This document shows, piece by piece, positions 59,205-59,378 of a stretch of DNA of 64,000 nt (within the stretch, counting starts at the first letter, position 1; every line of letters starts with the position of its first letter). Made by a program: the position numbers and the translations under genes. The DNA is from an uncultured Clostridia bacterium (GTDB lineage Bacteria; Bacillota; Clostridia; TANB77; CAG-508). Where the stretch lies: contig CAKPGM010000005.1 of assembly GCA_934154805.1 (NCBI GenBank), forward strand, positions 9,188-73,187, given 5' to 3'. Below the pieces are notes generated by a model. That model saw only the letters and a program-made list of their open reading frames with translations, ran no database searches and was not told the origin of the DNA.

Positions 59205-59378
59205 ATTAAATATATAATTTAATTAAAATTAACTATCTTAATTTATAGCATAGCTGTAAGAAAAAATCAATACTCGAATACAAAAATACAAACAAGGTTA
59301 AATTAATAAAAATTTTCAAAAACTATAAATATATACTAGTAGAGAGATTGAGGATTTTTATTAAATTATATATTTAAT
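59205..59378 (-). promoter_or_regulatory. Invertible promoter cassette 4, with the promoter facing into the 58043..59126 gene (ON)
   Basis: Perfect 19-bp inverted pair at 59205-59223 / 59360-59378. On the minus strand, -35 TTGATT is at 59265-59270 and -10 TATAAA at 59242-59247, spacer N17. Bases 59229-59272 are the exact reverse complement of 50153-50196. Confidence 0.75.

Follow-up and report, generated by a model that had tools for sequence, protein, structure and literature searches.

A short cassette of DNA, of roughly 180 bp, upstream of a surface-protein operon in an uncultured Clostridia bacterium is best explained as belonging to a family of invertible promoters (invertons) with copies at several loci, flipped by a recombinase encoded elsewhere and switching the operon behind it; the probability of this reading is put at about 0.88. 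The cassette is the fourth of four (cassettes 1-4) in the window, as the whole stretch of 64,000 nucleotides analysed here is called. The repeats, the orientations, the occurrence of both orientations at one locus in nature, and the family-wide conservation of sites, spacing and promoter block are direct observations.

In the mechanism proposed herein, a site-specific recombinase encoded elsewhere in the genome would synapse the two inverted 23-nt sites, and strand exchange within their central 5-nt spacer would flip the 132-nt segment, which carries a conserved, predicted sigma-A-type promoter with an extended -10. When ON, this promoter would read through the proximal site and a leader of about 110 nt into an operon of pilin-signal surface and membrane proteins; when OFF, as in cassettes 1-3, it would read away from the cargo and into terminators. 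Individual cells would thereby vary in which surface proteins are made.

Architecture of the cassettes in the window

The four cassettes of the 64-kb window share one build, namely a 23-nt site, an inner segment of 131-132 nt and an inverted copy of the site (Table 1). Each site is laid out as a 9-nt arm, a 5-nt asymmetric spacer and a second 9-nt arm, and the repeat consensus TTATTAAATATATAATTTAATTAA occurs eight times with up to three mismatches, forming four inverted pairs, against 0.02 expected by chance. Each cassette is placed shortly before a minus-strand gene that encodes a protein with a prepilin-type N-terminus. The block TATTGAYTTTTT..TACAGYTRTGCTATA is on the plus strand in cassettes 1-3, pointing away from the cargo, and on the minus strand in cassette 4. 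The description of cassette 4 as the only ON copy, given in the initial annotation of this DNA, is true of promoter orientation and within the window. The neighbours are housekeeping genes (rpsB, tsf, thrS, rnhB), the G+C content is ~28%, and the cassette locus is chromosomal.

Table 1. Positions of the cassettes, their parts and their cargo genes in the window
Feature	Position	Strand	Description
Cassette 1 (OFF)	5777..5953	.	Spacer class ATGTT; cargo 4541-5749
Cassette 2 (OFF)	16387..16563	.	Cargo 14933-16234; fixed TTGATT-17-TATAAT at 16371-16343, minus strand
Cassette 3 (OFF in window)	50046..50222	.	Sites 50046-50068 and 50200-50222; promoter block 50153-50196 (+), away from cargo
Cassette 3 cargo	48110-50017	-	BspA-type LRR protein (Pfam)
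Cassette 4 (ON in window)	59203..59380	.	Promoter block on minus strand, into cargo
Cassette 4, gene-proximal recombination site	59203..59225	.	TTATTAAAT-ATATA-ATTTAATTA; 9-nt arms, 5-nt asymmetric spacer; outer arm TTATT-type
Cassette 4, gene-distal recombination site	59358..59380	.	Inverted copy of proximal site; spacer is its exact reverse complement
Cassette 4, invertible inner segment	59226..59357	.	132 nt
P_inv, conserved promoter block (predicted promoter)	59229..59272	-	TTGATT 59270-59265, 17-nt spacer, TG 59250-59249, TATAAA 59247-59242; faces ATG 59126 (ON)
Fixed element outside the switch	59160..59188	-	TTGAAT-17-TATAAT overlapping 11-3-11 palindrome ATTATAAAACA-ATA-TGTTTTATAAT; 10/12 match
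Ribosome-binding site	59139..59145	-	AAAGGAG, upstream of ATG 59126, read from sequence
Intrinsic terminator of upstream DAO/Rieske gene	59389..59411	-	Predicted
First cargo gene, cassette 4	58056-59126	-	Pilin-type, 356 aa, prepilin-type N-terminus NGITLIALVVTIVVLLILAGVS
Second cargo ORF	56900-58012	-	Pilin-type protein, 370 aa
Third cargo ORF	55298-56896	-	Large polytopic membrane protein
Fourth cargo ORF	53467-55272	-	Large polytopic membrane protein
Fifth cargo ORF	52803-53438	-	211-aa protein

The 44-mer at 59229-59272 (plus strand) has one further occurrence in the window, the exact reverse complement at 50153-50196 in cassette 3, and it had no match in shuffled sequences. This 44/44 correspondence had been reported by the initial annotation; the exact identity in fact amounts to 64 nt (59209-59272 against 50153-50216), extending 20 nt further into the inverted repeat. 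The -35 and -10 coordinates given earlier for cassette 4, aimed at its start codon, are correct, and so are the opposite strands assigned to the promoter blocks of cassettes 3 (+) and 4 (-). The promoter-distal halves, which had been called unrelated, are indeed like shuffled sequence (identity 0.61-0.65, shuffled mean 0.62-0.66); the promoter halves are 0.79-0.89 identical. For the leader palindrome, the position given (59185-59161) was right and the arm length was not, the structure being 11-3-11 and not 10-3-10. On the far side of the cassette, the predicted terminator of the DAO/Rieske gene insulates cassette 4 from read-through.

Both orientations of cassette 4 in natural alleles

Alleles of cassette 4 were anchored on the conserved neighbour gene at 60990-61793, which gave access to this locus in ten more conspecific samples. 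The cassette is ON, as in the window, in ERZ27286937 (L001/L158), ERZ28614901 (L002) and ERZ27287327 (L163), and it is OFF, with the inner segment reverse-complemented, in ERZ27287306 (L159), ERZ28615684 (L160), ERR5050553 (L161) and ERZ28634729 (L164). Within the species, the tally is thus four assemblies ON (the window and three others) and four OFF. The inversion is exact in L159, L161 and L164, where the reverse-complemented segment sits between the same flanks, and L160 shows it with minor differences. The flanks are near-identical across samples; L001 differs from the window by seven SNPs, which marks it as an independent assembly. In ERR7738447 (L003), ERR10690082 (L166) and SRR34880622 (L167) the contig ends inside the distal inverted repeat. 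The contig of L003 breaks off at precisely the final base that the two orientations share, the effect expected of a mixed population on the assembly graph.

Furthermore, in orthologues of cassette 4 from related species (L027, L028, L077, L079), the inner segment lies on the opposite strand from the flanks. These orthologues were called via the unique distal DAO/Rieske flank; the gene-side flank was dropped because the conserved pilin N-terminus cross-matches paralogues. Cassette 3 is ON in one sample (L005) and OFF in another (L004) and in the window, and cassette 1 is OFF in three further samples.

The initial annotation had proposed that cassette 4 is inverted. Drawn from two paralogous cassettes only, that inference was suggestive; the allelic data prove it, both orientations being present at the same locus, between near-identical flanks, in conspecific samples. 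It is extremely improbable that the orientation was produced by misassembly, or that it is an ancient rearrangement, now fixed, with no further switching. At least 64 nt are identical between cassettes and could mislead assemblers, and several contigs break at the cassette. Both junctions are nevertheless assembled in both orientations, in several independent samples and by different assemblers, and the usual final k-mers exceed the ~29 nt of the shared site. The artefact against which the initial annotation had cautioned, an orientation with no reads spanning both junctions, is excluded by these assemblies. A fixed rearrangement, in turn, is made improbable by the presence of both states among strains with near-identical flanks.

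The cassette is absent from ERR15441341 (L162) and SRR31227939 (L165). In these two alleles, the upstream terminator is followed by the fixed TTGAAT-17-TATAAT element and then by the cargo gene, the two junctions being different; an 8-nt deletion in L162 also puts the N-terminus of the cargo out of frame.

Such cassette-less alleles, together with the multi-copy occurrence (~15 pattern matches in one MAG), constant length and inverted-repeat ends of the cassettes, would also suit MITE-like small transposons with terminal inverted repeats and an outward promoter, whose orientations arose from independent insertions. We regard this as very improbable. ON and OFF alleles have common junctions in near-identical conspecific flanks, with inner sequences that are exact reverse complements, and the outer half-sites are fixed relative to the gene, neither of which fits independent insertion. 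The cassettes are set apart from MITE-like transposable elements by the differing junctions of the two empty alleles, which indicate deletions and not precise excision, and by their neighbours: among the matches listed, all 83 of the 83 metagenomic cassettes with an identifiable neighbour adjoin a pilin-type gene on its upstream side.

Conservation across the cassette family

The family has at least ~150 members in human-gut contigs and related MAGs, mostly OFF. A metagenome scan with the inner sequence specific to cassette 4 gave no match and was replaced by a family-wide promoter pattern. This pattern matched 15 loci in the gut MAG CAVFFR01, six in Clostridium sp. CAG:780, one in a Hadza Clostridia MAG and at least 120 human-gut metagenome contigs, along with five chance matches without inverted repeats. 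For 121 metagenomic cassettes among the matches listed, 75 were scored OFF, seven ON and one ambiguous.

The promoter block is conserved across at least ~150 cassettes from several species, and the other half of the segment is randomised. The site arms are near-invariant. The 5-nt spacers fall into the classes ATATA, ATGTT, AAATA, AAGTA, ATATT and ACATT, which vary between cassettes and are always matched within one; in all 98 of the complete metagenomic cassettes among the matches listed, the spacer of the second site is the exact reverse complement of that of the first. Such matching is expected if strand exchange needs spacer identity, and would limit recombination between classes.

Among the matches listed, 69/71 OFF and 5/6 ON cassettes have a gene-proximal outer arm of the TTATT type, and 68/71 OFF ones a gene-distal outer arm of the TAATT type. 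Outer arms keep their place relative to the gene; inner arms, for the window cassettes and the related MAG, move with the segment. The arms of cassette 4 show exactly the hybrid pattern that would result from flipping a typical OFF cassette. In addition, both cassette 4 sites of L160 carry an identical 1-nt deletion at the arm/spacer border, mirrored between them. The fixed outer arms and this mirrored deletion are as expected of exchange in the site centre, and the deletion suggests that changes are copied from site to site during recombination.

The inner length was 132-133 nt in all 98 complete metagenomic cassettes among the matches listed; with 20 further complete members of the family, making 118 in all, the range is 131-133 nt without exception. 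It is held at this value though half of the segment is unconstrained in sequence, which suggests a geometric (looping) constraint on synapsis. A tandem pair of promoter-proximal end and site follows one cassette of Clostridium sp. CAG:780 (scf65, L008; ...TAGTTAGTTTTAATTAAATAACATATTCAATTAAAAAG...TAGTTAGTTTTAATTGAATAACATATTTAATTAAAAAA) and may be the footprint of recombination between cassettes.

The predicted invertible promoter and the fixed second element

The predicted invertible promoter, P_inv, has the consensus TTGAYT-17-TGcTATAAA and is placed inside the segment so as to face the gene in one orientation. Its -10 reads TATAAA, TATATA or TATAAG, the usual final T being missing, and a generic promoter scan passed over P_inv on account of the terminal A of its -10. 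Promoter predictions from a single sequence were discarded as evidence, as they gave 64 matches against 65.8 expected in this AT-rich window; conservation and position are what point to promoter activity of P_inv. As the promoter pattern itself served to retrieve the cassettes, promoter conservation within that set is partly circular; in the set defined by inverted-repeat pairs, only one cassette is without the retrieval pattern.

A second promoter-like element lies outside the switch, between the proximal site and the ribosome-binding site, in cassettes 2 and 4, and is missing in cassettes 1 and 3. It accompanies nearly all family cassettes, several members being without it, and is kept in the cassette-less alleles L162 and L165. 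Among the matches listed, 62 distinct family sequences carry it, with TTG conserved in 57-61 of the 62, TATAAT in 50 and a spacing that is always 17. The corresponding pattern gave 129 matches, 99 of them within 60 nt of an inverted-repeat site; the rest are mostly opposite-strand matches of the same palindromes. Deviations in its spacer arm are mostly of the G.U type on the sense strand (~26, against ~6 of the A.C type). The element may be a repressible second promoter with an operator, a leader RNA hairpin transcribed from P_inv, or both; a search of Rfam found no known RNA family in the cassette or leader. As a promoter-like sequence downstream of the switch, it implies that OFF may not mean silent, both for cassette 2 and for the OFF alleles of cassette 4.

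Pressed further, this would make the fixed element (59188-59160) the main promoter of the cargo operon, with the segment merely modulating the level of expression or the palindrome acting as operator of a second regulatory layer. Such an arrangement appears unlikely, as does, to the same degree, its counterpart that orientation is not a clean ON/OFF state and that cassette 2 could be expressed too. The element has a 10/12 match and good geometry relative to the ribosome-binding site, its -35 TTG, -10 TATAAT and 17-nt spacing are conserved among the 62 listed sequences, and it is an integral part of the module. It has been kept directly upstream of the gene in both cassette-less alleles, and similar elements precede genes without an inverton (L047, L088, L119, L142). 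However, cassettes 1 and 3 and several family members that are without it keep the invertible promoter, and inversion upstream of a constitutive promoter is without obvious selective value, yet the switch is strongly conserved. The spacer arm, moreover, is conserved far past the needs of a promoter, and its bias towards G.U-type deviations fits an RNA hairpin transcribed from P_inv, while the frameshifted cargo N-terminus of the cassette-less L162 is compatible with silencing. Control by the orientation of P_inv is retained as the preferred reading.

Cargo genes

The stretch 53467-59126 behind cassette 4, cited in the initial annotation, is not one gene. Four ORFs lie there, and a fifth (52803-53438) follows. 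No minus-strand terminator was predicted before 50850-50803, and the ORFs in 52803-59126 probably form an operon of four or five ORFs.

The cargo products of all four cassettes start with GITLIALVVTIVVLLILAGVS, a prepilin-type hydrophobic N-terminus, and all five of the pilin-type N-termini in the window (5/5) are within the four cassette-controlled loci. The Pfam N_methyl model scores 19.2 bits for the first cargo gene of cassette 4, with 17.9 bits as the other score, both under its cut-off of 21.2 bits, and the motif G-ITLIAL has Ala where pilins have Glu5. Geopilin, at E = 0.43, is the best PDB match of the cargo. Searches of NCBIfam, PHROGs and PDB sequences shed no light on cargo function and yielded no other characterised relatives for the first cargo gene, and exact-protein look-ups of the cargo of cassettes 4 and 1 (g4 and g1) gave no match.

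Cargo also differs between strains. In L171-L173, a 384-aa LRR_5 protein takes the place of window g1 behind cassette 1, the breakpoint falling within the invertible segment, where the conserved promoter block ends; these alleles have the fixed palindromic element that is missing at cassette 1 in the window. In L161, an LRR_5 protein stands behind cassette 4. For cargo gene 2 (window 16225-16320, minus strand), as in L015, L019 and L162, the upstream ATG is +1 out of frame with the pilin domain, by an A-run (...AAAAGCGGAAT...). The sole in-frame start of gene 2 is a GTG three codons before the Gly, and a short ORF ahead of it resembles the Lys-rich leader of gene 3. Possible readings of this frame offset are phase variation by slippage as a second layer, programmed frameshifting, or decay.

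Search for the recombinase

Neither Pfam searches of essentially all ORFs of at least 100 aa nor phmmer searches with XerD and Hin probe sequences found a recombinase in the window, and none was present in the flanks of related contigs, covering ~10 kb on the low-coordinate side and ~4 kb on the high-coordinate side. Across 1.08 Mb of cassette-bearing loci, one tyrosine recombinase was found, 3.7 kb from a cassette (L092), as well as a large serine recombinase with a fragment (L057); these loci showed no systematic linkage between recombinases and cassettes. With no recombinase found in the window, in the flanks or systematically near the cassettes, the enzyme would act in trans, as do Mpi in Bacteroides and MYPE2900 in M. 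penetrans. A tyrosine recombinase, rather than a serine invertase with its 2-bp core, is weakly favoured by the odd length and asymmetry of the core, in which a 7-bp overlap is plausible. From the sites, we infer that the crossover falls inside the spacer and that the enzyme belongs to the former class. A tyrosine recombinase acting in trans is hence the candidate that we somewhat favour.

Relation to known systems

The cassette family is a promoter inverton of classic function, by a mechanism already well established in other bacteria. The fimS switch of E. coli is a segment of 314 bp with the recombinase genes adjacent. As in fimS (FimB/FimE), a short invertible segment carries the promoter for a filament or adhesin operon, with a presumed tyrosine-recombinase logic; the present family differs in its many loci, its 132-nt segment and the absence of any adjacent recombinase among the genes searched. 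With four switches in 64 kb and no adjacent recombinase found, a fimS-type switch does not describe it. For fimS, a single locus with 9-bp inverted repeats is described (PMC3047005).

The likeness to the RecV switches of C. difficile is that of Firmicute phase variation by segment inversion. In these switches (cwpV, flgB, cmrRST), segments of ~150-300 bp are inverted at several loci by one trans-acting tyrosine recombinase. At cwpV and flgB, the invertible segment acts once transcription has started from a fixed promoter further upstream, whereas the conserved promoter here is inside the segment. The cmr switch of C. difficile is the subject of a preprint (bioRxiv 10.1101/690230).

With the Bacteroides Mpi regulon, the family has in common many dispersed promoter switches, shared inverted repeats and promoter motif, a majority of copies OFF at any time and, presumably, an unlinked recombinase. 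Mpi is a serine recombinase, and the odd-length asymmetric spacer found here argues, weakly, for a tyrosine enzyme. Compared with the Bacteroides-type repeat and promoter motifs, the phylum, the inverted-repeat sequences and the promoter consensus all differ, the sites here being TTATTAAAT-N5-ATTTAATWA and the promoter TTGAYT-17-TATAAA, of predicted sigma-A type, so that an Mpi-type regulon was rejected. The invertible promoters of capsule and surface loci in B. fragilis are described as being under the global invertase Mpi (Coyne 2003; PMC11892184, PMC2268961), and the Bacteroides motifs are presented as distinct groups (PMC11892184).

In the mpl (P35) family of M. penetrans, each gene is reported to have its own invertible promoter, with MYPE2900 as the trans-acting tyrosine recombinase (Horino 2003, 2009; PMC2268961, PMC3047005, PMC10502178). 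These promoters are described as switching independently, one recombinase acting in trans on many sites (PMC2268961, PMC3047005, PMC10502178), and their inverted repeats as 12 bp long and all mutually different (PMC3047005). Like mpl, the present system belongs to a low-GC bacterium with many dispersed surface-protein genes, each with its own short invertible promoter. In contrast to the 12-bp mpl repeats, those found here measure 23-29 nt, have conserved arms and fall into few spacer classes, and the cargo bears a pilin-type signal where that of mpl consists of lipoproteins; site length, arms and cargo type, set beside the mpl descriptions, thus place the family outside the mpl switches. Judged by site length and sequence, predicted promoter type and cargo, the family belongs to neither the mpl nor the Mpi system.

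Inverton catalogues (PhaseFinder; PhaseFinderDC, PMC11892184; DeepInverton, PMC11602134) likewise describe groups of invertons with common repeat and promoter motifs near surface-protein genes of gut bacteria. The main texts of these surveys contain no description of this repeat and promoter family or of pilin-signal cargo. At even odds, the cassettes would constitute an inverton regulon that has not been described before and extends across a lineage, in an uncultured, low-GC, Clostridia-like bacterium of the human gut with Clostridium sp. CAG:780 as a relative. Such a regulon would comprise ~15 near-identical cassettes per genome, with an inner length of 132-133 nt, spacer-coded site classes preventing inter-cassette recombination, a second fixed promoter/operator or leader hairpin, and cargo exchanged between strains by recombination inside the promoter block, and would give combinatorial display of pilin-signal adhesins under an unlinked master recombinase.

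The significance lies in an abundant uncultured human-gut lineage that appears to phase-vary a family of pilin-signal surface proteins, BspA-type LRR adhesins included, via one compact switch, since surface-protein switching bears on colonisation, immune evasion and phage evasion. The cassettes also matter for metagenome assembly and binning, because contigs break there. Their regular site anatomy, with conserved arms and few spacer classes, offers a clean system in which to identify the master recombinase and to study how inter-cassette recombination is avoided. Cassette 4 itself is unusually well documented by natural allelic variation, and would be unsurprising to a specialist.

Further observations on the window and related genomes

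The regions 23950-29066 and 38748-42058 of the window encode an ORF6N-domain protein, a TraG/VirD4-like coupling protein and a Replic_Relax-like protein near a tRNA (27553-27637). These genes may be left over from an integrated conjugative element; no integrase turned up in the window.

When OFF, the promoter of cassette 1 faces a plus-strand gene starting at 6075 (5960-6075, read by eye). Read-through from cassette 1 to this gene is probably blocked, since the interval holds a hairpin with a T-run (~5983-6010) and, separately, a TTGACA-17-TACAAT promoter.

The whole module of cassette 2 and its cargo (14895-16566) is missing in three other samples (L034-L036), in which the thrS leader directly follows the gene at 16605-17051. 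Units of switch plus cargo are accordingly strain-variable insertions or deletions.

Finally, the MAG CAVFFR01 (L006-L030) is labelled "Bacteroidaceae bacterium G02647-L1_cleanbin_000032" and has ~90% DNA identity at orthologous loci with the Clostridia-like window of 28% G+C. As its genome has 28% G+C, the public label "Bacteroidaceae" looks wrong.
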